Shown: one piece after another, positions 7,729 to 29,485 of the stretch
How the letters are laid out: the number at the start of each line of letters is the position of its first letter
How positions within the stretch are numbered: position 1 is the first letter of the stretch
Assembly (NCBI GenBank): GCA_022646745.1
Contig: CP060262.1
Span: 3,450,001-3,482,000 of the forward strand
Direction of reading: 5' to 3'
DNA: 32,000 nucleotides
DNA from: Planctomycetales bacterium
Lineage (GTDB): Bacteria; 4484-113; JAFGCY01
Program-made: the position numbers and the translations under genes
Notes under the pieces: generated by a model
Databases searched by the model: none
Told to the model about the DNA's origin: nothing
The model's input: the letters and a program-made list of their open reading frames with translations, nothing else

Positions 7729-7764
7729 ACCGACAAGGCCCTGTAACTCTAAGAGCTACACTCC
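7713..7764. repeat. Repeat family B, copy 1: outer stem GGAGTG/CACTCC enclosing two hairpins
   Basis: GTCGGTC-TTA-GACCGAC (7718-7734) and GTAACTCT..AGAGCTAC (7743-7759). By hand alignment, 45/52 positions match the reverse complement of 25739-25790. The stop codon TAG (7726-7728) of the preceding CDS spans loop and stem of the first hairpin. Confidence 0.85.
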
Positions 7765-7860
7765 CCATTTGCCGCTTCCCCCGTTGCGGGATATCATCAC
7801 CATGTCATATCGGGGCAAGTTCCGGGAACATATCCGGGGGCCCCGCCGTCTTGGTGCACT

Positions 7861-9285: not shown

Positions 9286-9287
9286 GA

Positions 9288-10682: not shown

Positions 10683-10685
10683 GCA

Positions 10686-12071: not shown

Positions 12072-12073
12072 GC

Positions 12074-12502
12074 ATGGCTGGCCAGACTGCCTTCGTTGAT
12101 AACGACTTCTGCTTCGCCTGCGGGGCGCTCAACCCCGCCGGCCTGCAGCTGGTGTTCGAGCGCGACGGCGATGTGCTCTTCACCCGCTTCCGCCCCAGCC
12201 AGCTCCACCAGGGCTGGCGCGATGTGCTGCACGGCGGGGTGCAGGCCACGGTGTTCGACGACCTGATGAGCAACTGCATGTTCCGTATCCACGGCCTCGG
12301 CGTGGTGACCGCGGAACTGACCACCCGCTTCCGCTCACCGGTGCCACTGGACCGGGAACTGGAGTTCCGCGCCTGGCTGAGCGGCGGCAAGCGTCCGCTG
12401 TGGGAGCTTAGCGCGGAGTGCCGGATCCACGGAGAAAGCGGCGGCCGGCCGCTGTCCACGGCGAAGGGGCGCTTCATGGAGACGCCGACGGAGGGGCGCT
12501 GA
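12074..12502 (+). CDS. Hotdog-fold (PaaI/4HBT-type) thioesterase
   Basis: 142-aa ORF starting 2 nt after the paralog 3 stop. It has the N-terminal CFACGALNPAGLQLVF motif and LHGGVQATVFDDLM. No signal peptide. Confidence 0.75.
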   Translation: MAGQTAFVDNDFCFACGALNPAGLQLVFERDGDVLFTRFRPSQLHQGWRDVLHGGVQATVFDDLMSNCMFRIHGLGVVTAELTTRFRSPVPLDRELEFRAWLSGGKRPLWELSAECRIHGESGGRPLSTAKGRFMETPTEGR

Positions 12503-12571
12503 GCAAGTTGCGGGTTTTTAATTATGGGGCGGCCCGCCGATTAGGTATGTGACCAAAGCCAGGAGTTTCCG

Positions 12572-13522
12572 ATGTACAGACTTGCTCTGCCGGTCCTGCT
12601 GCTGATCCTTGCACTGGCCGGCTGTGGTTCCGGGGATTCCGAGATCATCTCGGACAACCTCGTTGAGAAGGTGTTCAACAACGGCGAGGCCGCGCGCCTC
12701 GAACTGGCCAGTGGCGCGTACGTGGACTTCCCGAGCGGCACCTTCGCCGACCGCCAGGTGGTGAGCATCTCCGACCTGCTCAGCGGTTCGGACAACGTGG
12801 CCACCACCTTCCCGACCACCACGAAATCCATCAATGACCGGATCGGCGCGCTGATCATCAACAGCCCGGTGGATGCCCTGTTCGAGCGGGACATCACCGT
12901 GCGCATGAAGCTGGACAGCGCCCAGACCCCCGGCACCGAGTTCGTGCTTTACATCCACGACTCCGACCTGGGCAGCCGCACCGAGACCTACGACAACAAC
13001 TACGTCACCTGGTACCGCTACGGCAGCTACATCGCCACCGTGGACAGCACCGGGATCTACGCCACCTTCACGCTGGACACCGACGGCAACCGTGGCTTCA
13101 TCGGCACGCTGGCCGTGTTCCGCAACCACACGCTCTCAGACATGGGCAGCGCAGCCACCACCACTGTCAGCGGCCGCGTGCTGGACAAGAACGGATCCGG
13201 CGTCAGTACCGATGTGGAGCTGAGCTACCTCGTGGGCGAGGAGCGCTACCCGGTACGCCTGCTGAACGGAACTATCCCGAGCGGCGGCAGTGTGGCCAGC
13301 GTGGTTTTCAGCGACGCCAGCGGAAACTTCAGCATGCAGGTGCCGGACTTCTACATCAGCCAGATCTTCAACGTGAGCTTTGCGGTGCATGACAGCAACC
13401 GCAGCGAGCAGGATGAGTTCGTGGTGAACCTGCCCTATCCGATCCGTGAGGATGAGGTGAACAACCTCGTTATCCGCTACGGTGAAAACAACATTGTTTC
13501 TGAGCCTGTCGGAACGATCTGA
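12572..13522 (+). CDS. Lipoprotein with a carboxypeptidase-regulatory-like (CarboxypepD_reg) C-terminal domain
   Basis: 316-aa ORF with AGGAG 7 nt upstream of the ATG. The lipobox is LLILALAGC. The VSGRVLDKNGSGVSTDVEL...SDASGNFSMQVP pattern is present. Confidence 0.7.
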   Translation: MYRLALPVLLLILALAGCGSGDSEIISDNLVEKVFNNGEAARLELASGAYVDFPSGTFADRQVVSISDLLSGSDNVATTFPTTTKSINDRIGALIINSPVDALFERDITVRMKLDSAQTPGTEFVLYIHDSDLGSRTETYDNNYVTWYRYGSYIATVDSTGIYATFTLDTDGNRGFIGTLAVFRNHTLSDMGSAATTTVSGRVLDKNGSGVSTDVELSYLVGEERYPVRLLNGTIPSGGSVASVVFSDASGNFSMQVPDFYISQIFNVSFAVHDSNRSEQDEFVVNLPYPIREDEVNNLVIRYGENNIVSEPVGTI

Positions 13523-13552
13523 TCACTCAGGCGTTAACAGGGTTTAAGTCCG

Positions 13553-13583
13553 AGGCGGGGTCTGCTCAGGCCCCGCCTTTTTA
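13553..13583 (+). terminator. Intrinsic terminator closing the DUF4139-thioesterase-lipoprotein operon
   Basis: GGCGGGG (13554-13560) pairs with CCCCGCC (13571-13577) and is followed by TTTTT (13578-13582). It lies 30 nt after the stop at 13522. Confidence 0.8.
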
Positions 13584-13643
13584 GTTAACAGTGGACAGTG
13601 GTCAGAAGTCAGACCTTGAATTTGCCTTTCTGACCACTGACTA

Positions 13644-13673
13644 CTGACCACTGAGTACTGATTCATGTATAAT
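13644..13673 (+). promoter_or_regulatory. Candidate sigma70 promoter for tRNA-Leu
   Basis: CTGACC (13644-13649), an 18-nt spacer, then perfect TATAAT (13668-13673), 17 nt before the tRNA 5' end. It overlaps a 12-bp inverted repeat, CAGTGGTCAGAA (13597-13608) / TTCTGACCACTG (13627-13638), and tandem CTGACCACTGA units. Confidence 0.45.
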
Positions 13674-13690
13674 CTCAGTCCCCTTTGCCT

Positions 13691-13773
13691 GCGGGAGTGG
13701 TGGAATGGCAGACACGCAAGATTAAGGATCTTGTGAGCGAGAGCTCGTGGGGGTTCGAGTCCCCCCTTCCGCA
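13691..13773 (+). tRNA. Class II tRNA, hand-folded anticodon AAG (Leu); no encoded CCA
   Basis: Acceptor GCGGGAG/CTTCCGC with one G-T pair. Anticodon stem CAAGA/TCTTG with loop TTAAGGA. Long variable arm GAGC-GAGA-GCTC. T arm GGGGG-TTCGAGT-CCCCC. Discriminator A. Confidence 0.85.
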
Positions 13774-13969
13774 GATTTCAGATTTCCCTCATTCATGTCT
13801 GCCATCCGTTGCTGCAGCTCCAGGACGATGCAAATCCTCCAGCTCACCATCCCTTCCCGGAAACTATTCACTATTGCATATTTTCACGAATTATTTGTCA
13901 TTACCTTGACTTTGTATTTGTATTCAGGTAAACATATGTATCGTGACTCCAAGGGGAGGAAGGAAGGAT

Positions 13970-14464
13970 ATGGCAGTAATGACTGAAGTGGCCGAAATGA
14001 ACGGCCGTGATTCACAGGTCAGGCCTGAGGACTGGCTGCTCCTGTGGTGCATGGAGCACACGGATGCGGACGAGGACAGCATCCGCCGGGCCAGTGGCCG
14101 GTCCGCTGCGGAGCTGGATGAACTGCGCAGCTCCAACCCGGAAACACTCACTGAGATCCGTGGCCTGCATCGCATGGGGGCGCTGCTCAGCATCAGCATG
14201 CTGTTCGAGCTGCTGCGCCAGCGCCTGGCGGCGATGCTTGCCGTGGCAACGAAACCGGCGGAATTGCGCAGCCTGCTTGGTTCACTGCGCCAGCTGCCTG
14301 GTGCAAGGGAGCTACTCAGGCCGGCACCTTCTGCGACAGGGCAAGTGGGACCAATGGCCGCGGAGCTGGCACAGGTGGAACAGCTCATCGGCGCGGACAG
14401 CTCGCTGTCACGCCAGCAGCTGCGTGCGCTTGAGCGCCGCATGCGCAAGGCACTGGGAAAGTAG
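13970..14464 (+). CDS. Hypothetical helical protein (164 aa from ATG 13970)
   Basis: The ORF track gives 13943-14464. The ATG at 13970 follows GGAGGAAGGAAGGA. The composition is protein-like (MAVMTEVAEMNGRDSQVRPEDWLLLW...). I recognise no motif. The antisense ORF 13924-14478 has Ser/Arg/Ala-rich antisense-type composition. Confidence 0.55.
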   Translation: MAVMTEVAEMNGRDSQVRPEDWLLLWCMEHTDADEDSIRRASGRSAAELDELRSSNPETLTEIRGLHRMGALLSISMLFELLRQRLAAMLAVATKPAELRSLLGSLRQLPGARELLRPAPSATGQVGPMAAELAQVEQLIGADSSLSRQQLRALERRMRKALGK

Positions 14465-14513
14465 GGCAAGGCCACCATGCCTTGCCAAGGATGGCTAATG
14501 CCATCCGCTTATT
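14465..14513 (+). terminator. Tandem hairpins directly after the hypothetical CDS (terminator-like)
   Basis: GGCAAGG-N8-CCTTGCC (14465-14486) and GGATGGC-TAAT-GCCATCC (14489-14506), followed by GCTTATT. The T-tract is weak. Confidence 0.4.
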
Positions 14514-14591
14514 ACGGAAAGGATTCAGGGTAGCGGTGGCGCCAGCGCAGCGGCAGACCGACGAGTGCTTGCACGAGGAGGCAAATCAAAA

Positions 14592-14664
14592 TGGGTCCTG
14601 CAGGATTCGAACCCGCGACCAAGAGATTATGAGTCTCCTGCTCTAACCGCTGAGCTAAGGACCC
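14592..14664 (-). tRNA. tRNA with CAT anticodon, most like lysidine-type tRNA-Ile2 (elongator Met not excluded); no encoded CCA
   Basis: The reverse complement reads GGGTCCTTAGCTCAGCGGTTAGAGCAGGAGACTCATAATCTCTTGGTCGCGGGTTCGAATCCTGCAGGACCCA. The acceptor GGGTCCT/AGGACCC is perfect and the anticodon loop is CTCATAA. The D arm and the CTTGGTCGC variable region resemble E. coli ileX as I remember it. Confidence 0.85.
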
Positions 14665-14676
14665 GTGGGGATGAAG

Positions 14677-14705
14677 AGTTTACTGTGCAGTGCGGGAGTG
14701 GTCAA
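14677..14705 (-). promoter_or_regulatory. Candidate sigma70 promoter for the CAT tRNA
   Basis: On the minus strand: TTGACC (14705-14700), a 17-nt spacer, then TAAACT (14682-14677), 12 nt before the tRNA 5' end. The -35 lies inside the perfect 16-bp palindrome GTCAATCCGGATTGAC (14701-14716), which abuts the stop of the upstream lipoprotein gene. Confidence 0.45.
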
Positions 14706-14715
14706 TCCGGATTGA

Positions 14716-15279
14716 CTAGCCGCTGCCGGCCTCGGTTCCGCCTTCCACCTGCGTCTCACCCTCAGGCAGCACCGGAGTGTCCGTGCGGCGCTTCTCCTCA
14801 AGCACCTGGGTCGGCGCCTGCTCTAGTATCTGCGGGAAGGGGATGCTGACCGGGAAGTAGCCATACTCACCGACTTCCGCATCGCTGCCGAGGTAGAGGT
14901 ACCAGCGGCTTCCGGCCTTGACCCAGCGCAGCGGCTCCATGCTCTCGAAGGCGAAGCCGAGACTCGGCGGCACATCGGTCATCGCAAAGTTGCCTTCGAG
15001 GTTGGCCACCACATCCTCGGCCTTGACCTTCTCGATGCGGTTGTTGGAGGAGCGCGCCGGGGCATTTCCCGCGTTCAGCGCATCCAGGTTATCCTTCGTG
15101 AAACTGTTGCGGTAGGCCGGGCTGAGGAAGCTCGAATAGTCGCGCCCCTGCAGGTTACCCACGCTGAAGTTGTAGTATTCAGCCGCGGTCTTCTGCAGTC
15201 CGGCGGTTGCCCGGCTGCTGACCACCGAGCGGTTGCAGCCCGCGAGCATCAGCAGCGCGGCCAGCGCAAGCAGGGTCAT
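14716..15279 (-). CDS. Lipoprotein, function unknown
   Basis: The track ORF runs 14716-15453. The internal ATG at 15279 gives MTLLALAALLMLAGC, a perfect lipobox (LAGC). The region upstream of it has poor coding character. Confidence 0.7.
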   Translation of the reverse strand: MTLLALAALLMLAGCNRSVVSSRATAGLQKTAAEYYNFSVGNLQGRDYSSFLSPAYRNSFTKDNLDALNAGNAPARSSNNRIEKVKAEDVVANLEGNFAMTDVPPSLGFAFESMEPLRWVKAGSRWYLYLGSDAEVGEYGYFPVSIPFPQILEQAPTQVLEEKRRTDTPVLPEGETQVEGGTEAGSG

Positions 15280-15550
15280 GAACTTATGCGGCTTCACGTA
15301 TTGATTATAGCCCTGAGGGGGTAATGTAAAACGGTGATCGCAGACAGGCCCGCTGTGGATACCCCCACCCTGACCTGTCCGCGTGCTTCCGGGCCGTGGA
15401 TTGACCCGGATTTGAACCGCAGCCGACAGGACAGCAGTTATATAACTAGTCATAGCGCAGCGAGATAGCCGCTGGACAGTTATTCACATTTGCTATACTA
15501 CGGCTCGAGAGTCGTTTCGGCTCCGGGTTGAATCCGAGGGATATTGGTTG

Positions 15551-16360
15551 ATGAACAGAATTCCGGCCACGGAAAGCAGCATCCACGCTGATACGGCAAT
15601 GCTTGCACCCGTCGGCGCGTACACATATGTGAAGCGTGCGCTGGACCTGCTGGGCAGCCTGTTCTTCCTGCTGCTGTTCGCCCCTCTGTTCTGCCTGATC
15701 GCAATCATCGTCAAGCTGGAAAGCCCCGGCCCGGTGTTCTTCCTGCAGAAGCGCCTCGGCCGCCATGGCCGCCAGTTCGGCCTCTACAAGTTCCGCACGA
15801 TCCAGCGTGAGCCGACCCCCGGTGACGAGACCGGCTCGCACATGGCGATCTCCGGCAAGGATGCCGACATCACCCGCATCGGACGCTTCCTGCGCAACAG
15901 TGGCCTGAATGAGCTGCCGCAGCTGATCAACATCTTCCGCGGTGAAATGAGCTTCGTCGGCCCGCGCCCAGCCGTGCTGCACCACGAGCAGTACTACACC
16001 GACTGGCACCGCAAGCGCCTGGCCGTGCTGCCTGGCGTGACCGGCCTGGCGCAGATCTGCGGCCGCAATGTGATCCCCTGGGGCTGGCGCGTGGCGCTGG
16101 ACCGCTATTACGTGGACCACATGGGCTTCGGCAACGATGCGCTGATCTTCCTGAAGACCTTCCCCGTGGTGCTTGGCCATGTCGGCACTGAAGGCGCGGA
16201 GGACCTCTACTTCGACTTCACCCCGCCCGAAGAGTCGATGTTCGCTGAGAATCTCGAGAAGGACGGCATCTGGCGCACCTTCTTCCGCTACAGCTCTGAG
16301 GACGGCAAGTCCGAGATGGTGGAGGACAAGCTCCCCGCCGAACAGAAGCAGACAGCCTGA
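15551..16360 (+). CDS. Polyprenyl-phosphate glycosyl-1-phosphate transferase (bacterial sugar transferase family, WbaP/PglC-like small form)
   Basis: KRALDLLGSLFFLLLFAPLFCLIAIIVKLESPGPVFFLQKRLG, YKFRTI, ITRIGRFLRNSGLNELPQLINIFRGEMSFVGPRP. The track start at 15548 is TTG; the ATG is at 15551. Confidence 0.9.
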   Translation: MNRIPATESSIHADTAMLAPVGAYTYVKRALDLLGSLFFLLLFAPLFCLIAIIVKLESPGPVFFLQKRLGRHGRQFGLYKFRTIQREPTPGDETGSHMAISGKDADITRIGRFLRNSGLNELPQLINIFRGEMSFVGPRPAVLHHEQYYTDWHRKRLAVLPGVTGLAQICGRNVIPWGWRVALDRYYVDHMGFGNDALIFLKTFPVVLGHVGTEGAEDLYFDFTPPEESMFAENLEKDGIWRTFFRYSSEDGKSEMVEDKLPAEQKQTA

Positions 16361-16469
16361 CCAGCCGGATTGATTTGCGCATTTCCCTGGCTGCAATTGC
16401 GATTGCCAGTGTTGCTTGATATGCTGGATACGGACCCTGGAATAACCTGCGCCTGATAGGTGTGACCCG

Positions 16470-18593
16470 ATGCCAATAAACCCGTTGCGCTTTGCTCCTG
16501 CAGTCCTGCTGGGCCTGGCCGCATTCTTCCTTTCAGCCTGCGCTGGTTCTAGCTCCCCCCAGCAATCAACCACTGTTCCCGCGTCCGGCGGCATTTCGGA
16601 GCTTCCCGGGAATGTCAGCCTGCCCTTCCCCTCTGATGAAGGCACAGAGCGTTCAGCCAGGGCGCTTGGCCAGCAGCTGGTACTCGGCAAGGACTACTTC
16701 CGCAAGTCCGCGGATGCGCAGGTGGCGCTCAACGCAATCCAGCTCAGCCCGGCGGGAGCCGCCAACAGCTGGGCGATGTTTCGCTTCGAGGGCCTGACGG
16801 ACTCCGATGTGCTGCAGCAGCTTGATGTCAGCTTCGACATGCTGCCCAAGGACTACTACCTGGCCTTCGCCGACTTTGACAGCGGCCGCTGGCGCTGCGG
16901 ACTGCGTGGCAGTGCCAATGGCGGCAGTGCGGACACTGACATACTTACCTGGCCGAAGGCCTACCGCACCGTCTCTCCCGCTGGCAATGCTTACATAGCA
17001 GTAATCAACGGCGGGACCACGCTGGCAACGCTCAACAGCGTGATCCTGAGCATTGACTTCAGCAACATCGGCCCGCTGGCCGACCTGCAGGCCAGTAGCA
17101 TCCGTGGCAACGCCAGCCTGACGGTGGACTTCGACGCATCGGCCAGCGTCGACCAGGACGGCATGGGCCAGATCGCCCTGTTTGAATGGGACTGGGACGG
17201 CGACGGCAGCTATGACGAATCAGGCAGTGAAGCGCTGGTGCAGCATATCTTCACGGAACCGGGTGTGTACGAAGTCGGCCTGCGCGTGACCGATGACAAC
17301 GACGGCCTGACTGACACGGATGCGCAGGTGATCCGCGTGCTCGGCTGGCACCACAGCATCGGCACGGATGAAGGAGAAGTCTCCACCAGTGTTAACACTG
17401 TCGGCAACCAGGTGGTGGGCGTCGGCTACGGCATCCCCGCGCAGGGCATCCAGTTTGATGCCAACCTGTTCTGTTTCAGTGAACTTGGCGAAGCGCGCTG
17501 GTTCCGCAACTGGGGCGACCCCGACAGCCTCGACCAGTTCTACGACATTGCCGGCATGCCGGATGACGGCTTCGTGGCCGTCGGCCTGAGCTACGGCTTC
17601 AACGCACAGAACGGCGCTGTCACAATCGTGCGCTTTGACCGCAACGGTTATCCCCTCTGGCAGAAGCTGTGGGATTCCAGTGGCAATGAGTATGCCAGCG
17701 GTGTGGTGGCGGACACGAGCGGGAACATCTATGTCTCCGGTTCATCCTTCGGCTTCCGCGCTGACAGCGAGCAGGATGCGATCCTGCTGAAGCTCAGTGC
17801 GGATGGTGACCTGCTCTGGCAGTACCGCTATACCGACACTGAAACCACGAATCCGACCGGGATATGCTTCTCCGGCAATGACAGCGTCCTGCTGAGCACC
17901 TGGGCGGATTCCTACACCAAGACCCGCTCCGTCGGCCTGCTGGAAGTCAACTACGACGGGCAGCTGATAGACCAGAAAGTGATCGAAGTGGACGGCATCG
18001 CTCATTCCACGGACATCGTCGTGGACCGCACGGGGATTATCTACATCAGTGCCTACCACAACAACTTCCAGGACCTCGGCGTTTACTGCATGCTGGTCAA
18101 GCTGAATGCCAGCAAGGCCGTTACCTACGTCTCGCGCTGGGGCCATGAGGATGAGGCCCAGGCCTGGTCCCTCTATCTACGCTACCCTGCCCTGCTGGGC
18201 AGTCCCGACGTAATGGTGCTCGGGAACAGCAAGGCCGGTTCCACCTACCACCCGCTGCTGACCCGCCTGAACCCGAACGGCACCCTCGATGAGGCATTCT
18301 CCTGGTTCAGCCCGAACGGTTACTACACAGGCACAATCGGCTTCGGCCCACTCGGTGGAATCGTGCTGGCCGGTTCCGCCTACAACAACAACATCACCTA
18401 TACGGGCATTACGCCGATAATCTCCTTCATTCCCAGTACGACTCCCGCAGGAACATGCACAGGCCATGCGGTGAGTGGAATCTTCTCCGACATCAGCGGC
18501 GAACTGACGGATGTGCCGGCGGAACTCGATCAGGAACGCGATGACAACAATCAGGACTGCTTCGTGGGAGCCTACTTCCCGGATGATCTGTAA
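16470..18593 (+). CDS. Large lipoprotein with a PKD domain and beta-propeller (SBBP-like) repeats
   Basis: 707 aa. The lipobox is AAFFLSAC. PKD-like segment: LTVDFDASASVDQDG..FEWDWDGDGSYDESG..GVYEVGLRVTDDNDGLTDTD. Repeated segments resemble YASGVVADTSGNIYVSGSS. Confidence 0.8.
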   Translation: MPINPLRFAPAVLLGLAAFFLSACAGSSSPQQSTTVPASGGISELPGNVSLPFPSDEGTERSARALGQQLVLGKDYFRKSADAQVALNAIQLSPAGAANSWAMFRFEGLTDSDVLQQLDVSFDMLPKDYYLAFADFDSGRWRCGLRGSANGGSADTDILTWPKAYRTVSPAGNAYIAVINGGTTLATLNSVILSIDFSNIGPLADLQASSIRGNASLTVDFDASASVDQDGMGQIALFEWDWDGDGSYDESGSEALVQHIFTEPGVYEVGLRVTDDNDGLTDTDAQVIRVLGWHHSIGTDEGEVSTSVNTVGNQVVGVGYGIPAQGIQFDANLFCFSELGEARWFRNWGDPDSLDQFYDIAGMPDDGFVAVGLSYGFNAQNGAVTIVRFDRNGYPLWQKLWDSSGNEYASGVVADTSGNIYVSGSSFGFRADSEQDAILLKLSADGDLLWQYRYTDTETTNPTGICFSGNDSVLLSTWADSYTKTRSVGLLEVNYDGQLIDQKVIEVDGIAHSTDIVVDRTGIIYISAYHNNFQDLGVYCMLVKLNASKAVTYVSRWGHEDEAQAWSLYLRYPALLGSPDVMVLGNSKAGSTYHPLLTRLNPNGTLDEAFSWFSPNGYYTGTIGFGPLGGIVLAGSAYNNNITYTGITPIISFIPSTTPAGTCTGHAVSGIFSDISGELTDVPAELDQERDDNNQDCFVGAYFPDDL

Positions 18594-18745
18594 TCCGGAG
18601 CCGCGTTGCGTAGTCACGCAGTGACGAAGCTGCGCAGGCTCTCCTTAGCAATGAGTAGGGAGCAATGAGCAATGAGCCAAACTCAGCCTGAGGTTATCTC
18701 GCAGCCAGCCTGACTCATTGCTCACTCTTCATTGCTCATTGCTGG
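18594..18745 (+). repeat. Repeat family A, copy 1 (152 bp), left flank of the low-GC cassette
   Basis: A gapless hand alignment to 20717-20868 gives 131/152 identical positions. It contains CCGC-GTT-GCGG, GTCAC-GCA-GTGAC and self-complementary (GCAATGA)n / (TCATTGC)n arms. Confidence 0.9.
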
Positions 18746-18807
18746 CAGTCCGGGAAGGAGCTGCCCGCTTTAGCGGCAGTAGGCGCAGCGTTAGGAGTCA
18801 CACTGAA

Positions 18808-20055
18808 ATGATTAATCTGATTATGATTCTTGCAGTTCAATGGTTCATCTTCAGTCAGAGCAGCACACATATCGAAAGCAATGACCGAGTTTTTCCTGTG
18901 TCAGGAGTCGATGTAAACTCTCAGACATTGAACTTATCAAACTATCATTCTGGTATTTTCACAGAAGAGTTCACCTACTCGAATGTAAGAGTTCTTGATA
19001 GAAATATTGATGGCTTTCATGCAGTCTTGTCGGACGGAGCAAAATCCTCCAAGCTATTTTTTGTTGGAGACTCTGTTTTGAAGTTTGATATTTCACCCTA
19101 TTATTTTGAAAATTTTATAACGGCCCGCAGAACGAGTGATTATTGGGAGTTTTGGGTTATCAAACACGGAGAGTTATGCTTTGCAGATTATGATGACGAA
19201 CAGATTTCAGCAGATCCAACGATTATAATGAATGTGGATGTTTCAAATCATAACTACATAATACTTACAGATGATGACAATCTGTATATACTTGATTCTT
19301 CTGGCCTTACAAATATCGACTGTAGGAGCAAGATGATACTGTGGTCTATCAAGACACCAGAGATAGACAATATTTCAAATTCATTTCTATATTCATGGGA
19401 TGGTAATGTTTGCATTGCCTATAATGGTGGTGTGCTATGTTTCAATCCGATAAGCGGCAAGAAAACCAAATCCATAGAGTGGAGCATGCCAATTGATGAG
19501 ACTGTCAGAAGATTTGAAATAGAAGACTCTTTGGATTTGAGTGAACTACATGGTAAAAGTTCATATTTGAATATACAGAATATTGTAAACACCCGAACTA
19601 GTACTTATATCATGCTACCAATGTGTATAATCAATGATGGTTCACCTGAATGTACCTATTTTAGAATCCTTGCAAGCTATTGTTACGAGAGTGATCGCTG
19701 GCTATATGTAACAGGGACTCCAGATTTTCAAATTTACAGTAGCGCTGTTCTGGGAGATGATGCCCATGCTGTACTAGTGTATAGTGATCAAAGAATTAAA
19801 CTACAGAGAAGAGAGCACACTATATATTCAGTCGGAGATCGATTTGCAGCAATCATCGTGAATGATCTGAGCAAATCACAAATCGAAAGAAGGATCGATG
19901 TTTATGACAATCTTCATGGCACTTTTGCTACATTTGATGTAGGAGACGCAATACCAGTTTTTCTGCATTGTACTAATGATGGAACCATTGTGTTTGATCT
20001 CGAAAACAACATATATTGGATAGATGATGTCAGTGGAACTCCATCATTGCGCTAA
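18808..20055 (+). CDS. Hypothetical secreted or membrane-anchored protein encoded in low-GC DNA, possibly beta-propeller-like
   Basis: The track ORF 18718-20055 begins inside repeat A1. The ATG at 18808 has AGGAG 10 nt upstream and gives MINLIMILAVQWFIFSQS as a hydrophobic N-terminus. Segments such as NLYILDSSGLTNIDCRSKMILWS and GGVLCFNPISGKKTKSIEW resemble PQQ-type propeller blades, but only weakly. Confidence 0.65.
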   Translation: MINLIMILAVQWFIFSQSSTHIESNDRVFPVSGVDVNSQTLNLSNYHSGIFTEEFTYSNVRVLDRNIDGFHAVLSDGAKSSKLFFVGDSVLKFDISPYYFENFITARRTSDYWEFWVIKHGELCFADYDDEQISADPTIIMNVDVSNHNYIILTDDDNLYILDSSGLTNIDCRSKMILWSIKTPEIDNISNSFLYSWDGNVCIAYNGGVLCFNPISGKKTKSIEWSMPIDETVRRFEIEDSLDLSELHGKSSYLNIQNIVNTRTSTYIMLPMCIINDGSPECTYFRILASYCYESDRWLYVTGTPDFQIYSSAVLGDDAHAVLVYSDQRIKLQRREHTIYSVGDRFAAIIVNDLSKSQIERRIDVYDNLHGTFATFDVGDAIPVFLHCTNDGTIVFDLENNIYWIDDVSGTPSLR

Positions 20056-20069
20056 AGTTAGACAATATA

Positions 20070-20612
20070 ATGACTAATCAAAAGAAGTCTTCTGTAGCTA
20101 CAGTACCCTACATGCTATGCGTTATCGTAGTGTCCGTTTCTGTTGCTCTCATTTCATCATGTGATAAATCGAACAAGCATTCAACAAAATCACCAACCAT
20201 ATCCAGTACTGACGCGCAGCTACCCGCCGACTGGCCTATAAATGAGCTGAAACTTCCAGAGAATGTTAATTGGAGTGAATTACCACCTCATATTAGATTT
20301 GCCGGTAACAAATATCATTACTTCAATGACATCTCAAATGCCAGTGAAGAGAATTGGGTAGTAGGATTCAATCGTTCTGGGCTCTACTGGGAAGAAGTAT
20401 CAGAGTTGGCAAAGACTTCCTTGCTTGATTCAGGTTTCATTCTTGATCCCAACCCGACTTATCCAAATGATAAACAGATGAATGAATATATCAGCGCTGA
20501 TGGAAAAACCAGTGTACGGGTTTACTTCAGCCATTTTGAAGCTTCAAAAATGGATACCATTAACAATAGTGCTGATACGTTTATTTATTTCATTCATATT
20601 GATAAGCAATAA
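20070..20612 (+). CDS. Hypothetical lipoprotein encoded in low-GC DNA
   Basis: 180 aa with a hydrophobic segment and the lipobox-like VALISSC. I recognise no family. Confidence 0.6.
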   Translation: MTNQKKSSVATVPYMLCVIVVSVSVALISSCDKSNKHSTKSPTISSTDAQLPADWPINELKLPENVNWSELPPHIRFAGNKYHYFNDISNASEENWVVGFNRSGLYWEEVSELAKTSLLDSGFILDPNPTYPNDKQMNEYISADGKTSVRVYFSHFEASKMDTINNSADTFIYFIHIDKQ

Positions 20613-20716
20613 ATCCCGGATTTCATCTCGTAATTGAACAAGTTCTTGGAAGCATACTGAGAAGTCTCCACCGAGCAGGCTCTGTCACAGAGCTTGCGAA
20701 GCTGCGCTTCGCAGCT

Positions 20717-20868
20717 TCCGGAGCCGCGTTGCGGAGTCAGGCAGTGACGAAGCTGCGCAGGCTCTCGTAAGCAATGAGTGCAGAGTGTTGAGCAATGAGC
20801 CAAACTCAGGACGAGGTCATCTCAAATCCAGTCAGGCTCATTGCTCACTCTTTATTGCTCATTGCTGG
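20717..20868 (+). repeat. Repeat family A, copy 2 (152 bp), right flank of the low-GC cassette
   Basis: See copy 1. It is itself bracketed by two copies of AGCTT(G/A)CGAAGCTGCGCTTCGCAGCT, at about 20691-20716 and 20901-20926. Each contains the hairpin GAAGCTGCG-CTT-CGCAGCTTC; the last pairs are imperfect in the second copy. Confidence 0.9.
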
Positions 20869-21008
20869 CTGGAATGGATCTGCTTGCACACATCCAACAA
20901 AGCTTACGAAGCTGCGCTTCGCAGCTCCGATCCCCACCCCTTTAACCTGATCCGGCTCCCGATGGGATAATAGAAGCTGGCGTGGGCCCAAGCCCCGCCG
21001 GGGTATGC

Positions 21009-24000
21009 ATGTCAGTAGTTGAGAAGAAGAAAGCCGGGGTCAAGATCCCCATCCGCATCGTCACCGCCGCCGCACTGTTCGACGGCCACGATGCGTCGAT
21101 CAACATCATGCGCCGCATCCTGCAGGCCAGCGGTGTCGAGGTGATCCACCTCGGGCACAACCGCAGCGTGGAGGAGATCGTGAACGCCGCGATCCAGGAG
21201 GATGCGCAGGGCATCGCCGTCACGAGCTACCAGGGCGGGCACATGGAGTTCTTCACCTACATGCGCCAGATGTTGGATGAGCGTGGCGCTGGCCACATCC
21301 GCATCTTCGGCGGCGGCGGCGGCGTGATCGTGCCGCGTGAGATCGAGGAGCTGCACAAGGCCGGCATCGACCGCATCTTCTCCCCCGACGACGGGCGCAA
21401 GCTCGGCCTGCAGGGCATGATCGACCTCGTGATCGCCGGCTGCAACTACGACCCGCTGGAGCAGGACCTGAAGGTGAACGGCAGCTCGCTTCCGCTGGCG
21501 CGCAACATCACCATCGCCGAGCGTGGCGACGAAAGCCACAGCTTCTACGAAATTGGCGACGGCTCCGACAGGACCATCCCGGTGATCGGCCTGACGGGCA
21601 CCGGTGGTGCCGGCAAGAGCAGCCTGACCGACGAGCTGGTGCGCCGCTTCATCAACGACTTCCACGACAAGCGCATCGCCGTGATCTGCGTCGACCCGAC
21701 CAAGCGCCGCACCGGTGGTGCGCTGCTGGGCGACCGCATCCGCTTCAATACGCTGAAGAACAACCGCGTCTACCTGCGCTCGCTGGCAACGCGTGACAGC
21801 AACAGCGAAATCAGTGAGCAGGTCGGCCCCGTGATCGACACCGTCAGGCGTGCCGGATACGACTTGATCCTCGTGGAGACCGCCGGCATCGGCCAGGGCG
21901 ACAGCGAGATCACGAAGTACGTGGACCTCTCGCTGTACGTGATGACGGCGGAGTATGGCGCGCCGAGCCAGCTTGAGAAGATCGAGATGCTGGACTACGC
22001 CGACTTCGTGGTGATCAACAAGTTCAGCCGCCGCGGCAGCGAGGATGCCCTGCGTGATGTGCGCAAGCAGTACCAGCGCAACCGCGAGGCCTTCCACCTG
22101 CGTCCCGAGGAACTGCCCGTGTTCGGCACGAATGCCGCGCAGTTCAATGACGGCGGCGTGACCGCACTGTACGCCCACATGGTGGCGCAGCTAAATGAGA
22201 AGTTCCAGCTCGGCTGGCAGAGCCAGCACCAGCCTGACAAAACGCGGGCCTCGAAGATCAGCCAGTACATCATCCCGCCGGGACGCGAGCGCTACCTGTC
22301 CGAGATTGCCGATGTCAGCCGCAAGTACCGCGACTGGGCCTCAGAGCAGGCCGGGATTGCCAGTGAACTGGATTCGCTGCAGCAGGCGATCATGCTGCTG
22401 GGCGGACCTGGCAACACGGACTGGAAGGAATACGACAGCAAGACACATGGCAATGCCAGCGATGGCGTGCGCGACCTGATGGACGCCTATGACAATCGCC
22501 TCGACCGGCTGGACAACCGCTGCCGCAAGCTGCTGCGCGACTGGCAGGACTGGGATGCCAACTACAGTGGCGATGAATTCAGCTACACCGTGAGGGGCCG
22601 TGAGATCAAGGTGCGCACGCATCGTGAGAGCCTCAGTGGCAACATGATCCCGCGCGTGGCGCGGCCGAAGTACCGCGATGCCGGTGACCGCCTGCAGTGG
22701 CGCCTGCTGGAGAACGTGCCGGGTGAGTTCCCCTACACCGCCGGCACCTTCCCCTTCAAGCGTGAGGCGGAGGACCCGACCCGCATGTTCGCCGGCGAGG
22801 GCCCGGCGGAGCGCACCAATGCGCGCTTCCACTACCTCGCCGAGGGCCAGCCGGCCAAACGCCTGTCAACTGCCTTCGACTCAATCACGCTGTACGGTGA
22901 GGAGCCGCACCTGCGGCCGGACATCTACGGCAAGATCGGTGAGAGCGGCGTTGCCATTTTTACCACCGAGGAGGCGGAGCAGCTGTACGCCGGCTTCGAC
23001 CTTGTCAGCCCCAATACATCGGTATCTATGACAATCAATGGCCCGGCGCCGACCGTGCTGGCCTTCTTCATGAATGCGGCGACGCGCCAGCAGTGCCGCA
23101 GGTACCTGAAGGAAAATGGCAGGCTGGACATCAGCGATGAGCAGATCTACCAGCCGGACCGCCTGCGCGGGGCGCACTGGGACGATGTGCGCGCCCTGTT
23201 ATCAGATGAGGAGTACCTGAGGATCCGCGAGGAGACCATGGCCCAGGTGCGCGGCACGGTGCAGGCCGACATCCTCAAGGAGGACCAGGGCCAGAACACC
23301 TGCCTGTTCTCGACGGAGTTCAGCCTGAAGCTGATGGGCGACGTGCAGGAGTACTTCTCCGCCAACGGCGTGCGCAACTTCTACAGCGTCAGCATCAGCG
23401 GCTACCACATCGCCGAGGCCGGAGCAAACCCGATCCACCAGCTGGCCTTCACGCTGGCCAACGGTTTCACCTACGTGGAGTACTACCTGGCGCGCGGGAT
23501 GGACATCAATGAGTTCGCGCCGAACCTGAGCTTCTTCTTCTCCAACGGCATGGACCCGGAGTACACGGTGATCGGCCGTGTTGCCAGAAGGATCTGGTCC
23601 ACTGCTATGCGCGACAAGTACGGCGCGGACGCCCGCAGCCAGATGCTGAAGTACCACATCCAGACCAGCGGGCGCAGCCTGCATGCGATGGAGATGGAGT
23701 TCAACGACATCCGCACCACCCTGCAGGCGCTCTTGGCGATCTATGACAACGCCCAGAGCCTGCATACCAATGCCTTCGATGAGGCGATCACCACGCCGAC
23801 GCGGGAAAGTGTGCGCCGCGCGATGGCGATCCAGCTGATCATCAACCGAGAGTTCGGCAAGGTTTTCTGTGAGAACAGCACCCAGGGCAGCTTCCTCGTG
23901 GAGGAACTGACCGACCTCGTGGAAGCGGAAGTGCTGAAGGAGTTCGACCGCATCTCGGAGCGCGGCGGCGTGCTCGGCGCGATGGAGCGCCAGTACCAGC

Positions 24001-24353
24001 GCGGCGAGATCCAGGATGACAGCCTGAAGTACGAGCGCATGAAGCATGACGGCTCGCTGCCGATCGTGGGCGTGAACACCTTCATTGACAACAGCAAGGA
24101 CTACGCCAGCGAGCAGGATGTGGAACTGAGCCGCGCCAGCACTGAGGAGAAGCAGCAGTGCCTCTCGCGCCTGGCAGGCTTCCATGAACACTACGCCGAC
24201 AAGGCCCCGGCCGCCCTTGAGAAGCTGCGTCAGGTGGCGCTCGAGAATGGCAATGTATTCGCGGAACTGCTGGACTGCGTGCAGTACTGCTCACTGGGCC
24301 AGGTCACGAATGCCCTGTTCGAGGTCGGCGGGGAGTACCGGCGGAACCTGTAG
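21009..24353 (+). CDS. icmF: Fused isobutyryl-CoA mutase (B12-binding domain + MeaB-like G-protein + mutase TIM-barrel domain)
   Basis: N-terminal B12 motif FDGHDASINIM. Central P-loop GLTGTGGAGKSSL with NKF(S) (VVINKFSRRG). The long C-terminal region is methylmalonyl-CoA-mutase-like. The domain order matches IcmF. The track start is 20982; ATG 21009 (MSVVEKKKAG) is more likely. Confidence 0.9.
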   Translation: MSVVEKKKAGVKIPIRIVTAAALFDGHDASINIMRRILQASGVEVIHLGHNRSVEEIVNAAIQEDAQGIAVTSYQGGHMEFFTYMRQMLDERGAGHIRIFGGGGGVIVPREIEELHKAGIDRIFSPDDGRKLGLQGMIDLVIAGCNYDPLEQDLKVNGSSLPLARNITIAERGDESHSFYEIGDGSDRTIPVIGLTGTGGAGKSSLTDELVRRFINDFHDKRIAVICVDPTKRRTGGALLGDRIRFNTLKNNRVYLRSLATRDSNSEISEQVGPVIDTVRRAGYDLILVETAGIGQGDSEITKYVDLSLYVMTAEYGAPSQLEKIEMLDYADFVVINKFSRRGSEDALRDVRKQYQRNREAFHLRPEELPVFGTNAAQFNDGGVTALYAHMVAQLNEKFQLGWQSQHQPDKTRASKISQYIIPPGRERYLSEIADVSRKYRDWASEQAGIASELDSLQQAIMLLGGPGNTDWKEYDSKTHGNASDGVRDLMDAYDNRLDRLDNRCRKLLRDWQDWDANYSGDEFSYTVRGREIKVRTHRESLSGNMIPRVARPKYRDAGDRLQWRLLENVPGEFPYTAGTFPFKREAEDPTRMFAGEGPAERTNARFHYLAEGQPAKRLSTAFDSITLYGEEPHLRPDIYGKIGESGVAIFTTEEAEQLYAGFDLVSPNTSVSMTINGPAPTVLAFFMNAATRQQCRRYLKENGRLDISDEQIYQPDRLRGAHWDDVRALLSDEEYLRIREETMAQVRGTVQADILKEDQGQNTCLFSTEFSLKLMGDVQEYFSANGVRNFYSVSISGYHIAEAGANPIHQLAFTLANGFTYVEYYLARGMDINEFAPNLSFFFSNGMDPEYTVIGRVARRIWSTAMRDKYGADARSQMLKYHIQTSGRSLHAMEMEFNDIRTTLQALLAIYDNAQSLHTNAFDEAITTPTRESVRRAMAIQLIINREFGKVFCENSTQGSFLVEELTDLVEAEVLKEFDRISERGGVLGAMERQYQRGEIQDDSLKYERMKHDGSLPIVGVNTFIDNSKDYASEQDVELSRASTEEKQQCLSRLAGFHEHYADKAPAALEKLRQVALENGNVFAELLDCVQYCSLGQVTNALFEVGGEYRRNL

Positions 24354-24493
24354 GAAGGTTGGAGTTGGGAGGTAGGAGTTTGGAGGCCAAGCTGTAAGCT
24401 TGGCAATGCCAGGCAGAACTACCTGGCCTCCGATTTCGCGCAGTTCCGGCTACGCCTCCGCAACGCGGCTCCGCAAGCAATGAGCAATGAGCC
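24354..24493. repeat. Composite of repeat modules: family C copy 2, a hairpin, an inverted A-start module and a GCAATGA module
   Basis: Purine-rich module GAAGGTTGGAGTTGGGAGGTAGGAGTTTGG (24354-24383, overlapping the next module by 2 nt). GGAGGCCAAGCTGTAAGCTTGGCAA (24382-24406) is the exact reverse complement of 152-176. Hairpin GCCAGG-N8-CCTGGC (24408-24427). CCGCAACGCGGCTCC (24458-24472) is the reverse complement of the start of family A copy 2 (one mismatch to copy 1). GCAAGCAATGAGCAATGAGCC lies at 24473-24493. Confidence 0.8.
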
Positions 24494-24551
24494 AGTCCAC
24501 CAGCAAGGTAGTCAGGCACTTGTTTCGCTGGACCGGTTCTATAATCAGCCC

Positions 24552-25715
24552 ATGAAAACAGTGCTACAGACAATCTGCATCACCACAGTGCTGATACTGA
24601 CCTGTTCCTGCAATGAAGGTGAAACTGACAAGCAGACCCAGCAGGCTGCAAGTCCAGCCCCCATTGCAAAGCCTGAAGTGATAGAGCGCAAGGAACTCAA
24701 CCCGCGGAAACTGCACACGCTCCAGTGGCACGACGATTGGGTGGATCTGCTTGCCTTTACACCTGACAGCAGGACGCTGGCAACAATGAGCAGCAGGGAC
24801 CATACGATTCGCCTGTGGGATGTTGAGAGTGGCTCGGAGAAGCATGTGCTGCGCGGACACGAGGACTTCATCTGGCACATTGATGTCAGTCCGGACGGCA
24901 AGCACATTGCCAGTGCCAGCAAGGATGACACTGCCCGGATCTGGGACATTGACAGCGGTGAACAGGTTCATCTGCTGAAGGGACATACCGACAATGTACG
25001 CTGGGTGGATTACAGCCCGGACGGGAGCCTGCTTGTTTCGGCTGGGTCTGACGGCGACATCCGTATCTGGGACACAAGCACCGGAAAATGCAGAAAGACC
25101 CTTTCCAAGAACGAGAAGGCAGTGAACTTTGCCAATTTCAGCCCAGATGGCAGCATGCTCGTAAGTGGCGGTACGGATATGATCACGCGCATCTGGGATG
25201 TGGCAAGCGGGAAAGCCCTGCAGCAATTGTCCGGCCACCGGGATCAGGTGTTCCGCGGTGATTTCACACCTGATGGAAAGCAGGTCCTGACAATCGGACA
25301 CGACAATCGTGGTCTGCTCTGGGACGCAGTCACCGGCGAGGAAGTACAGAAGTTCCTTGGTGCAACTGACACACTCTTCAATATGGAGATAAGTCCGGAT
25401 GGAAGCCAGGCAGTGCTGATAAGCCTGGAGAATCACTGCCGCCTGTGGAATCTGAGGAAGAATCCTGGTGATCCCATACTGCTTGATCACCACGACAAAG
25501 TTAGTGATGCAGAATTCACTCCAGATGGCAATTATGTAGCTACTTGTGGCATGGATGGCTGGATCATGATCTGGAGTATTCCGGATGGCCAGTTGGTGCT
25601 AACGGTCCAGGAATTTTCCAACCTTGTTCCAAGTATCGCCATCAGTCCGGACGGCCGGTTCATTGCAGGTGGAAACTCAGACGGACAAACCAAGGTCTGG
25701 CAGCTGGCTGACTAG
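24552..25715 (+). CDS. WD40-repeat beta-propeller protein with an N-terminal hydrophobic signal sequence
   Basis: Repeated LxGHxDxVxxVxFSPDGxxLxSxSxDxTIRIWD-type units, for example LRGHEDFIWHIDVSPDGKHIASASKDDTARIWD. The track start at 24480 (MSNEP) is encoded by the GCAATGA repeat. ATG 24552 gives MKTVLQTICITTVLILTCSC. Confidence 0.9.
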   Translation: MKTVLQTICITTVLILTCSCNEGETDKQTQQAASPAPIAKPEVIERKELNPRKLHTLQWHDDWVDLLAFTPDSRTLATMSSRDHTIRLWDVESGSEKHVLRGHEDFIWHIDVSPDGKHIASASKDDTARIWDIDSGEQVHLLKGHTDNVRWVDYSPDGSLLVSAGSDGDIRIWDTSTGKCRKTLSKNEKAVNFANFSPDGSMLVSGGTDMITRIWDVASGKALQQLSGHRDQVFRGDFTPDGKQVLTIGHDNRGLLWDAVTGEEVQKFLGATDTLFNMEISPDGSQAVLISLENHCRLWNLRKNPGDPILLDHHDKVSDAEFTPDGNYVATCGMDGWIMIWSIPDGQLVLTVQEFSNLVPSIAISPDGRFIAGGNSDGQTKVWQLAD

Positions 25716-25738
25716 CAGGCATGAGCCTGCGCGGCTCC

Positions 25739-25790
25739 GGTGTGTAGCTCTAAGTGCTACAAGGCCATGTCGGTCAAAGACCGACACTCC
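25739..25790. repeat. Repeat family B, copy 2 (inverted relative to copy 1)
   Basis: GTAGCTCT-AA-GTGCTAC and GTCGGTC-AAA-GACCGAC hairpins. By hand, 45/52 positions match the reverse complement of 7713-7764. It is preceded by GCAGGC-ATGA-GCCTGC (25716-25731) and by CGCGGCTCCGG, the reverse complement of the family A start. Confidence 0.85.
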
Positions 25791-26065
25791 GCCAGAAAAG
25801 CAGAACCCCGGCCCTGCTCCACCCTCACATCGGAACAGTCGCCGGGGTCCTTGGCTTACAAGTCAGACAGGCGGGAGATTGCAGCTCCCTTCCTGCGGCC
25901 TCCCGGGTCCATACTCCCGGAAGCCTGAGTCTGACGGGGTCATCTCAGTTGTGGTCACCGTCTGCGAGCTCCGGCAACCACGACATATGAGACCAGCACC
26001 GGTAACTTTTGTTCCCGCTGATTTAAGCGGAATTTAACGAAGTGCGGACTGCGGCTTTTCGCGGA

Positions 26066-26995
26066 TCAGTAGAGCGGTTCTTCGCCCGCCGGGCGGGTCT
26101 TCCAACGCTTGTGGCCCCACAGCCACTGCGTCGGGTCCTCGATCAGCACCTGCTCGTACATCTCATTCACGCGGCGCAGCACTTCAAGCTGTGCCTCGTT
26201 GTTGTCCTCCGGCAGGTCTTCGAGGTTGACCGGGCGGAAGTACACCTTATGCCGTCCCGGCCGGATGCGGCGGCTGAACAGCAGCACCATCGGGGCTCCG
26301 GTACGCACACCGAGCGCGCCGGGCCCGGGCACGGTGCTGGCCTGGATCCCGCAGAATGGCACGAACACGCCGGTGGTGCCCCCATTGACGTCCGCCACCA
26401 AGCCGAGGATGTCACCGGCGCGTAGGGTCTTCAGGATGGAGGCGTTCGCATTCTTGCCGGCGTAGATGTTCTGGATGTCGAAGCGCGCCCGCCAGGGGAA
26501 GGCGATGTTCGTGAAGAAGGGGTCCGCCTGGCGCTTGCCCACGGCGTGCATCACGCGGATGTTCTTCGTGACCCAGGCCGCCACCAGCTCCCAGTTGCCG
26601 TAATGCATGCCGACGGCGATCAGGCCCTTGCCCTTGGCCAGGCCCTCGTGCATGTGCTCGAGGCCCTCGACTTCCTCCACCATGTCGTAGATCTGCTGCT
26701 TGCCCTTGATGCCGAACATGATGAACTCCATCACGTGGCAGCCGATGTTCCAGGCGGCGTCGCGCCCGATCCGCCAGGCTTCTTCCCGAGTCTTCTGGCC
26801 GCGGAAGGCCAGCTCGATGTTGCGCATGCTGGTGCGGCGCCAGCGGCTGAACATGTACCACAGCAGCACCCCGAGGTTGCCACCGACGCGGATCGCCACG
26901 CGCTGCGGCAGCACACGTGCAATGAACATCATCATGTAGACGAGCATGTGCGCCGGGAAATTGCGGACCTTGTAGTACCACTCAGGCTTCGACAC
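26066..26995 (-). CDS. Lysophospholipid / lipid A biosynthesis acyltransferase (LpxL/HtrB family)
   Basis: 309 aa. The family motif is GLIAVGMHYGNWEL (HxxxxE/D type). The N-terminus is hydrophobic and the overall layout matches Lip_A_acyltrans proteins. The start codon is GTG. Confidence 0.8.
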   Translation of the reverse strand: MSKPEWYYKVRNFPAHMLVYMMMFIARVLPQRVAIRVGGNLGVLLWYMFSRWRRTSMRNIELAFRGQKTREEAWRIGRDAAWNIGCHVMEFIMFGIKGKQQIYDMVEEVEGLEHMHEGLAKGKGLIAVGMHYGNWELVAAWVTKNIRVMHAVGKRQADPFFTNIAFPWRARFDIQNIYAGKNANASILKTLRAGDILGLVADVNGGTTGVFVPFCGIQASTVPGPGALGVRTGAPMVLLFSRRIRPGRHKVYFRPVNLEDLPEDNNEAQLEVLRRVNEMYEQVLIEDPTQWLWGHKRWKTRPAGEEPLY

Positions 26996-27008
26996 AGCTC
27001 AATTGTAG

Positions 27009-27776: not shown

Positions 27777-27848
27777 GCATGCCGGACCGGCCGCCCGCGG
27801 AATGTATAATCGGTGTGCGGCTCCCGGCCGTGAGGAAAGGCAATAGGA

Positions 27849-29474: not shown

Positions 29475-29485
29475 GCCGGCCCCTG

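Follow-up and report, generated by a model that had tools for sequence, protein, structure and literature searches.

We analysed a stretch of 32,000 nucleotides (nt) from a Planctomycetales bacterium (GenBank: GCA_022646745.1, contig CP060262.1), called the window in the following, in which two AT-rich genes lie between a lipoprotein gene and icmF, the gene for the fused isobutyryl-CoA mutase. The two genes, here called open reading frames (ORFs) 1 and 2, are bracketed by two direct copies, L and R, of a 153-nt hairpin-forming element. Because the segment is absent from the locus in three relatives and its GC content at third codon positions (GC3) is less than half that of the host genes, we read it as a foreign, recently acquired two-gene islet. 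The islet has the polarity of an insertion, carries no mobility signature and lies between resident repeats, and the gene content varies on both sides of icmF.

An AT-rich gene pair between two hairpin elements

Measured in steps of 400 nt, the GC content is 0.35-0.40 over positions 18801-20400 and 0.445 over 20401-20800, compared to ~0.56-0.68 across most of the window. In 50-nt bins the left edge is abrupt, with a fall from 0.66 (18750-18799) to 0.32 (18800-18849), i.e. at the ATG of ORF1 at 18808, and the right edge lies at ~20650, where the bins rise from 0.36 (20600-20649) to 0.54 (20650-20699). The AT-rich block, for which the GC content drops from ~0.62 to 0.35-0.40, reaches from ~18800 to ~20655 and comprises 1.9 kb with two genes. 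The GC content of the whole ORFs is 0.37 for ORF1 and 0.39 for ORF2 against 0.61-0.69 for the host genes, and their GC3 is 0.33 and 0.36 against 0.77-0.90 for 14 other genes of the window. The GC3 of the host genome is ~0.86, and the islet values of 0.33-0.36 show no shift towards it. The WD40 gene downstream of icmF has a GC3 of 0.61, between that of the islet ORFs and that of the other window genes.

Among the ORFs scanned across the window, with Pfam among the models used, there was no integrase or transposase, and the AT-rich block was found to end in neither terminal inverted repeats nor a target duplication. The islet does not adjoin a tRNA gene; the nearest ones are located ~4 kb upstream (13690-13774 and 14592-14664). 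An earlier reading of this DNA from its letters and ORFs alone, below called the sequence-only reading, had put the drop in composition at ATG 18808 and its end near 20640, had described one ORF of 415 amino acids (aa) with a hydrophobic N-terminus and one of 180 aa with a lipobox, and had seen no integrase, transposase or short target-site duplication. The windowed GC and GC3 values, the ORF coordinates and features and the scan of the window all agree with it. The features of the locus are collected in Table 1.

Table 1. Features of the lipoprotein-icmF locus and of the spacer downstream of icmF, in window positions.
Feature	Position	Strand	Description
Left flank, PKD + SBBP/delta-60 beta-propeller lipoprotein	16470..18593	+	707 aa; Pfam PKD_4 E = 1e-12; NCBIfam delta-60 and SBBP lipoprotein matches
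Element copy L (left)	18594..18746	+	Repeat family D6; immediately follows the lipoprotein stop codon
Host-type GC-rich spacer	18747..18807	+	GC 0.66; small hairpin HP_a' and ribosome-binding site
ORF1	18808..20055	+	415 aa; hydrophobic N-terminus; predicted all-beta
ORF2	20070..20612	+	180 aa; signal peptide and lipobox LISS|C
AT-rich 3' tail of the inserted block	20613..20655	+	Right compositional boundary, from 50-nt GC bins
Host-type hairpin modules left of R	20675..20716	+	GCAGGCTCTGT-C-ACAGAGCTTGC, then HP_b (GAAGCTGCG-CTT-CGCAGCTTC)
Element copy R (right)	20717..20869	+	Same-strand repeat of L
HP_b', second copy of the 30-nt hairpin repeat	20897..20926	+	Repeat family D17; brackets R + 27 nt together with copy 1
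Right flank, icmF, fused isobutyryl-CoA mutase	20982..24353	+	Pfam B12-binding, MeaB, MM_CoA_mutase, E = 6.5e-115
Second variable spot	24354..25793	+	Hairpin modules 24354-24384, 24459-24494 and 25739-25793; WD40 gene

The protein encoded by icmF unites the B12-binding, MeaB GTPase and mutase domains in a single polypeptide and should not be confused with the type VI secretion protein that is also called IcmF; gene callers place its start at 21009 (1114 aa). The lipoprotein of the left flank is conserved and syntenic, and its orthologues adjoin icmF in three related genomes, which we refer to as L138, L143 and L144.

The locus in relatives and the resident repeats

L138 is a 671-kb scaffold that represents a second haplotype and is 92-94% identical to the window over 6857-24382. 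Its site is empty: the spacer between the lipoprotein gene and icmF measures 271 nt and contains a single 153-nt element but no cassette. In L143, whose lipoprotein has 54% aa identity, and in L144, which is the metagenome-assembled genome (MAG) AC1.30 with 31% aa identity, the lipoprotein gene is likewise located directly upstream of icmF without the cassette. The spacer of L143 is 111 nt long and has no 153-nt element. In L139 and L140 the lipoprotein gene is either adjacent to icmF or ends in a spacer of the empty type. With three cassette-free relatives at graded distances and a GC3 that has not drifted to the host value, an insertion in the window haplotype is the only economical reading. 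The sequence-only reading had named an old, vertically inherited cassette as the outcome to expect if both genes were also present here in close relatives, and L138, L143 and L144 all lack them.

The two element copies of the window align as direct repeats without gaps, with 132 of 153 positions identical (86%, BLAST E = 1e-46), far beyond chance; they had been described before as same-orientation, gapless 152-bp repeats with 131 of 152 positions identical, which is essentially right. Each copy contains two hairpins, a stem-loop 1 of ~46 nt and a stem-loop 2 of ~100 nt. In L, hairpin 1 is found at about 18597-18642 and hairpin 2 at about 18645-18745, the latter with a stem of tandem heptamers, in which (GAGCAAT)n on the 5' side pairs with (ATTGCTC)n on the 3' side. 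The minimum free energy of the fold is -69.8 kcal/mol for L (z = -5.2 against shuffles) and -73.1 kcal/mol for R (z = -6.05). The consensus two-hairpin structure is retained in all three copies, namely L, R and the single copy of L138, called E, to which L is 87.6% and R 83% identical. On either strand, the 5' arm of a heptamer run contains TGA in all three frames; L has stops in three frames on both strands, and in R one frame of the + strand has no stop.

Besides the two full copies, the window holds one partial module set at 24459-24494, where half of hairpin 1 occurs in inverted orientation together with heptamers. No Rfam family was found for the element, neither with gathering thresholds over the whole window nor in E-value mode over 18400-21100, and two tRNAs were the sole matches. 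A search of JGI metagenomes with the hairpin-1 pattern gave only two matches, both by chance. The hairpin-2 architecture, together with part of the apical loop, is common to the related MAGs AC1.30 and UBP7 HKST-UBA01. The element is a lineage-specific composite of a widespread type of gene-end hairpin, and since L138 has a single copy and L144 has an element-plus-HP_a junction, the 153-nt repeats are resident structured elements of the host at gene ends. The gene-end location of this hairpin type fits a terminator or insulator role. L folds strongly and starts 0 nt from the stop codon; however, neither L nor R was called as a U-tract terminator on the + strand in a terminator scan.

The spacers of the window and its relatives are mosaics of further hairpin modules. 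The order in the window is stop codon, L, 7 nt, HP_a', ribosome-binding site, ORF1, ORF2 and AT-rich tail, followed by hairpins ending in HP_b, R, 27 nt, HP_b', a shared flank and icmF. HP_a' is GGGAAGGAGCTGCCCGCTTTAGCGGCAG (about 18752-18779), and the ribosome-binding site is an AGGAG at 18793-18797, upstream of the ORF1 start. In L138 the order is stop codon, HP_a, E and shared flank; in L144 it is stop codon, decayed 3' end of the element, HP_a-like hairpin, more modules and shared flank. Homologues of HP_a' are thus present in L138 before the single element copy and in L144 after the decayed element end. The hairpins HP_b and HP_b' form a 30-nt direct repeat, with copy 1 at 20687-20716, copy 2 at 20897-20926 and 28 of 30 positions identical (93%). 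L138 holds only the last 6 nt of HP_b'.

There are also modules that occur at distant positions of the window. A 55-nt double-hairpin module (GTCGGTCTTAGACCGAC...) has inverted copies at 7710-7764 and 25739-25793, 18 kb apart, and is found in L144 and L092 as well, and a heptamer-periodic GGAGNNN module has inverted copies at 113-151 and 24354-24385, beside a GCCAAGCTNNAGCTTGGC hairpin. The pair of 30-nt repeats around R and its 27 nt looks as though a target hairpin had been duplicated or a tandem duplication had remained partial.

REP/BIME of enterobacteria, BOX and RUP of pneumococci, ERIC and the Correia elements are known modular intergenic repeats. The element shares with them that it is extragenic, strongly palindromic, made of shuffled modules, located at gene ends and variable between close relatives; extragenic position, palindromy and a modular mosaic are the REP/BIME-type traits seen here. 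In contrast to these families, it has no sequence similarity to them and no Rfam match, its stem consists of tandem heptamers, and there is no RAYT or other transposase in the window.

Gene content also differs on the other side of icmF. In the window (region compared: 24354-26068) icmF is followed by a WD40 gene at 24480-25715, in L138 (15772-18248) by a gene for a 222-aa protein with a GC content of 0.52 and, further on, a DUF5666 gene, in L143 (13577-15289) by a TPR gene with a GC content of 0.356 which starts 2 nt past icmF, and in L144 (13900-14635) by a 737-nt mosaic of modules only. In this clade, the two sides of icmF have thus received foreign genes on more than one occasion, and some of these genes are strongly AT-rich. 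As the gene content varies on both flanks of icmF, we take the hairpin-rich spacers for a hotspot. The islet resembles strain-specific genomic islets at hotspots in its atypical composition, its presence or absence at a conserved locus, the variable neighbouring spacers and the lack of an integrase. It differs from them in that the hotspot is marked by mosaic hairpin repeats instead of a tRNA gene and that the insert is located between two 153-nt copies.

In its longest reading, the WD40 ORF begins with ATGAGCAATGAGCCA, within a heptamer module (24476-24494); gene callers pick a later start, which gives 387 aa.

Routes of acquisition

We consider it on balance probable that a recent islet entered a hairpin-rich hotspot by illegitimate or microhomology-mediated capture, with the repeats as resident gene-end elements and no recombinase encoded by the element. 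A foreign AT-rich block would have landed in the spacer between the lipoprotein gene and icmF, which is a mosaic of hairpin-forming modules. The cassette would have entered between modules, after L and HP_a' and before HP_b and R, with the outcome that each transcription unit would end in its own copy of the element. Integration most likely proceeded by breakage and repair, and a palindrome-rich spacer of this kind would be break-prone and open to illegitimate or microhomology-mediated repair. The junction of L and HP_a' predates the cassette, as the same element-hairpin junction is found in the cassette-free L144. Between L and the cassette there are 61 nt of host-type spacer with HP_a', hence the insert does not abut L. 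Under this reading the islet in its hotspot is a case of ordinary gene acquisition and does not point to a vehicle for cargo.

Several points weigh against it. In L138 the HP_a hairpin precedes the single element copy and does not follow it, and E corresponds to R by position although it is nearer to L in sequence, so R could have come with the cassette from a related donor. R and its 27 nt lie between 30-nt direct repeats, which hints that the element can move or duplicate. No scar of break repair was identified; the sole candidate, read by eye, is a 6-nt CGCAGC present at both junctions. Finally, the element copies were compared at this locus only, and element pairs may be associated with foreign DNA more often than by chance.

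A donor-derived R is also what a Campbell-type integration would give, in which a circular DNA with the cassette and one element copy recombined by homology with the resident copy. We regard this as unlikely, though there are observations that suit it: a single copy where the site is empty and a direct pair where it is occupied, a more divergent R (83% identity to L138 compared to 87.6% for L), as expected if R came with the insert, and the host-type GC content of R and its flanking hairpins, which would allow a related genome as donor. It conflicts with the 61 nt including HP_a' between L and the cassette, since this junction is shared with the cassette-free L144 and a crossover cannot lie inside L, and the insert does not abut both copies. 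Comparing L, R and E, there are 13 sites at which E equals L, 6 sites at which E equals R and 11 sites at which L and R agree and E differs. These sites are interleaved, so they form neither the reciprocal 5'/3' hybrids of a single crossover nor the 5'-L/3'-R hybrid of a deletion. Moreover, at 86% identity and with a longest exact shared run of ~26 nt, the copies are poorly suited to RecA-dependent recombination. A second genomic context for the cassette was not seen either: ORF2 is found on 18 contigs, and all ten that were retrieved map to this locus. Recombination between copies of the repeat, one of two routes proposed by the sequence-only reading, is therefore not borne out by the shared 61-nt spacer after L and by the L, R and E sites, which have no crossover pattern. 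Its other proposal, that the repeat is itself a vehicle for cargo, fares no better, given that the empty site already has one copy, that the insert is not at L and that attC-type core sites are lacking.

Under a site-specific system, the element would be an attC-like site, or a miniature inverted-repeat transposable element (MITE) or REPIN mobilised in trans by a recombinase encoded elsewhere, and promoterless cassettes would be captured or carried. The locus does have the look of a cassette array: as in integrons, including integrase-less attC clusters, ORFs of unknown function are followed by a structured, imperfect palindrome of ~100-150 nt, and similar direct copies bracket the cargo. The position of R and its 27 nt within 30-nt direct repeats, together with L being an indel relative to L138, suggests moving modules, and the modules have been reshuffled into other combinations from locus to locus and from one relative to another. 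As to the traits of a MITE, hairpin 2 forms a long inverted repeat, the 30-nt repeats that flank R and its 27 nt are far longer than usual target duplications, and L is flanked on both sides by the 5-nt TCCGG only. Unlike in integron cassettes, no R''/R' cores (RYYYAAC or GTTRRRY) were found at the ends of L or R, the nearest thing being one internal GTTGAGC in R only, and the 32 kb contain no IntI or other tyrosine recombinase, no RAYT and no other transposase. Furthermore, the point of insertion does not coincide with the boundary of an element, there are only two copies, the element matches no Rfam family, and the cassette consists of two genes with their own AT-rich tail and no terminal repeats. 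We judge such a system improbable.

It is very improbable that the cassette is ancestral and that the relatives lost it when the direct repeats recombined. Direct repeats are a classic substrate for deletion, and the closest relative, L138, keeps a single copy. Nevertheless, the cassette would have had to be lost three times independently, as all three relatives at graded distances lack it, the GC3 of 0.33-0.36 has not drifted in a genome with ~0.86, the copy of L138 is not a 5'-L/3'-R hybrid, and the 111-nt spacer of L143 is without any element. Least credible of all is an assembly or binning artefact, that is a chimeric join of low-GC DNA at the repeats. The short-read contigs L005, L007-L009 and L013-L014 end inside the repeats at 18676-18741, as such an artefact would have it. 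However, the window matches the NCBI MAG GCA_020440665.1 and several independently assembled metagenome contigs. The independent assemblies L001-L004 and L011 cross both junctions and are 100% identical across the cassette save one base in L004, and the junction-crossing contigs come from different samples and assemblers (NCBI MAG, ENA k141 and WANG18 scaffolds) with 99.9-100% identity. As independent contigs cross both junctions, a chimeric join is excluded.

Beyond capture at a break-prone spacer as such, hairpin-module spacers, with two-hairpin elements past a gene end and heptamer stems that have TGA in three frames, might act as a recombinase-independent capture platform, in which long palindromes provoke breaks, foreign DNA is captured and the elements insulate the new units transcriptionally and translationally. 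We give this wider idea little credence, although it would explain the repeated arrival of AT-rich genes on both sides of icmF and the separate element copy of each unit. In a stronger version, the 153-nt element may be duplicated or mobilised together with the captured genes. A mechanism of gene mobility would not be new here unless the element were associated with cargo across the genome. The locus matters as a clean, polarised example of very recent acquisition in an uncultured high-GC host, with both junctions known and no mobility machinery, and it identifies spacers made of palindromic modules as the places where gene content changes in this lineage.

The encoded proteins, heptamer hairpins in other phyla and haplotypes

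ORF1 had no match in Pfam, NCBIfam, PHROGs or PADLOC, in Pfam not even at E <= 10, and no homologue beyond its own cluster was found among 5.8 billion clusters. A sequence search of the PDB and a tblastn search against phage and plasmid records also gave no match. The single-sequence AlphaFold2 model is all-beta but unusable (pLDDT 36.7). Compared with a PQQ_2 propeller encoded in the locus L132, ORF1 shows a weak repeat-wise similarity (pairwise E = 0.004, Smith-Waterman z = 4.4); with an unrelated SBBP propeller as control, the score was almost the same (53 vs 59). No PQQ_2-type model matched ORF1 and no confident propeller fold was obtained for it. Of the faint propeller-like repeats noticed earlier, what persists is this weak PQQ/BamB resemblance, without a propeller model match and with a control nearly equal to it. 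ORF1 may be a secreted or membrane-anchored beta-rich protein with a degenerate PQQ/BamB-type propeller.

For ORF2, 13 matches were detected among 1.84 billion representative proteins, which are the query's own cluster and 12 distant relatives at E <= 1e-3. The family is rare, with proteins of about 170-200 aa, an invariant lipobox Cys and a conserved LPADWPIxELxLP motif (alignment A2). ORF2 has the build of a lipoprotein, starting with MTNQKK... and a hydrophobic core that is followed by the ISS|C lipobox. There was no match in PHROGs, PADLOC or NCBIfam, and no member of the family was found in viral contigs. An AlphaFold2 model based on the family alignment has a pLDDT of 77.5 and shows an alpha/beta domain. 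Foldseek found no significant match for it in the PDB (best E = 0.02, TM 0.26), and it weakly resembles the DcrB lipoprotein (TM 0.35-0.41). That neither ORF belongs to a recognisable family, as supposed from the sequence, accordingly still applies to ORF1 but not to ORF2 with its 12 distant relatives. The profile and structure searches that had been proposed as a check brought up the rare ORF2 family, no family for ORF1 and no significant fold match for ORF2.

One of the ORF2 homologues, P0012, is encoded on L132, from an unrelated organism with 67% GC, after a 382-aa true PQQ_2/BamB-type propeller. The pair has the same order and similar sizes as the islet genes, with a protein of ~380-415 aa followed by a lipoprotein of ~180-196 aa. 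The difference is that none of the propeller models fits ORF1, whose pairwise similarity is weak. The pairing of propeller and lipoprotein is found in 2 of 4 contexts of the ORF2 family; the two other ORF2 homologues stand alone. It is plausible that ORF1 and ORF2 form such a propeller-plus-lipoprotein pair with a function in the cell envelope. P0012 and its propeller partner (L132, 6799-8591) have a GC3 of 0.68-0.72, compared to 0.91-0.92 for their neighbours, which suggests that the pair is mobile in that organism too.

Heptamer-stem hairpins, which occur in the window at 18645-18745, 20768-20868 and 24476-24492, are also found in many other genomes. The pattern used for the scan across phyla consisted of 10-nt stem cores only, and a hairpin was counted as lying at a gene end if an ORF of >= 120 aa ended within 200 nt. 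Among the matches listed, there are more than 117 loci (including L015-L131), nearly all of them extended heptamer hairpins, in Acidobacteriota, Chloroflexota/Thermomicrobiales, Trueperaceae, Nitrospinota, Bacteroidota and other groups. In 84 out of these 118 listed matches an ORF end is found near the hairpin on one or both sides, at a median distance of 9-10 nt from the stop codon. The hairpins are often located <= ~25 nt from ORF stop codons, and 35 of the 118 are positioned between convergent ORFs. A heptamer hairpin at gene ends in many phyla has a testable function, as a terminator, an insulator or a fragile site.

The GAGCAAT heptamer was not found in the literature searched. That heptameric simple repeats are over-represented as such is already known (PMC4692102). 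The cyanobacterial STRR and the GGGAATC repeats of Xanthomonas are intergenic heptamer tandem repeats (PMC4692102 and the 2007 survey cited there). They share with the hairpins studied here the 7-nt period, the intergenic position, the at times inverted arrangement, the capability to form stem-loops and a length that varies between relatives (PMC4692102). In contrast to them, the unit here is GAGCAAT, and it almost always occurs, among the matches listed, as an inverted pair which forms one long hairpin abutting stop codons in many phyla.

Besides the islet, the window differs from its closest relatives in a patchwork manner. Its identity to L138 is 100% over 26068-29943 but falls to 92-94% over 6857-24382. 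The opposite holds for L001, to which the window is identical up to about 26000, with the differences concentrated at 26000-29700. We read this as a recombination mosaic of co-occurring haplotypes with a switch at the variable spacer downstream of icmF. Copy number varies as well. Three tandem paralogues of ~460-474 aa with a weak DUF4139 match are located at 7861-12071 with a period of ~1.39 kb and 64-91% nucleotide identity, of which L143 has only two. L144 (3475-10124) has three tandem PKD lipoprotein paralogues of 625, 697 and 707 aa upstream of icmF, where the window has one.

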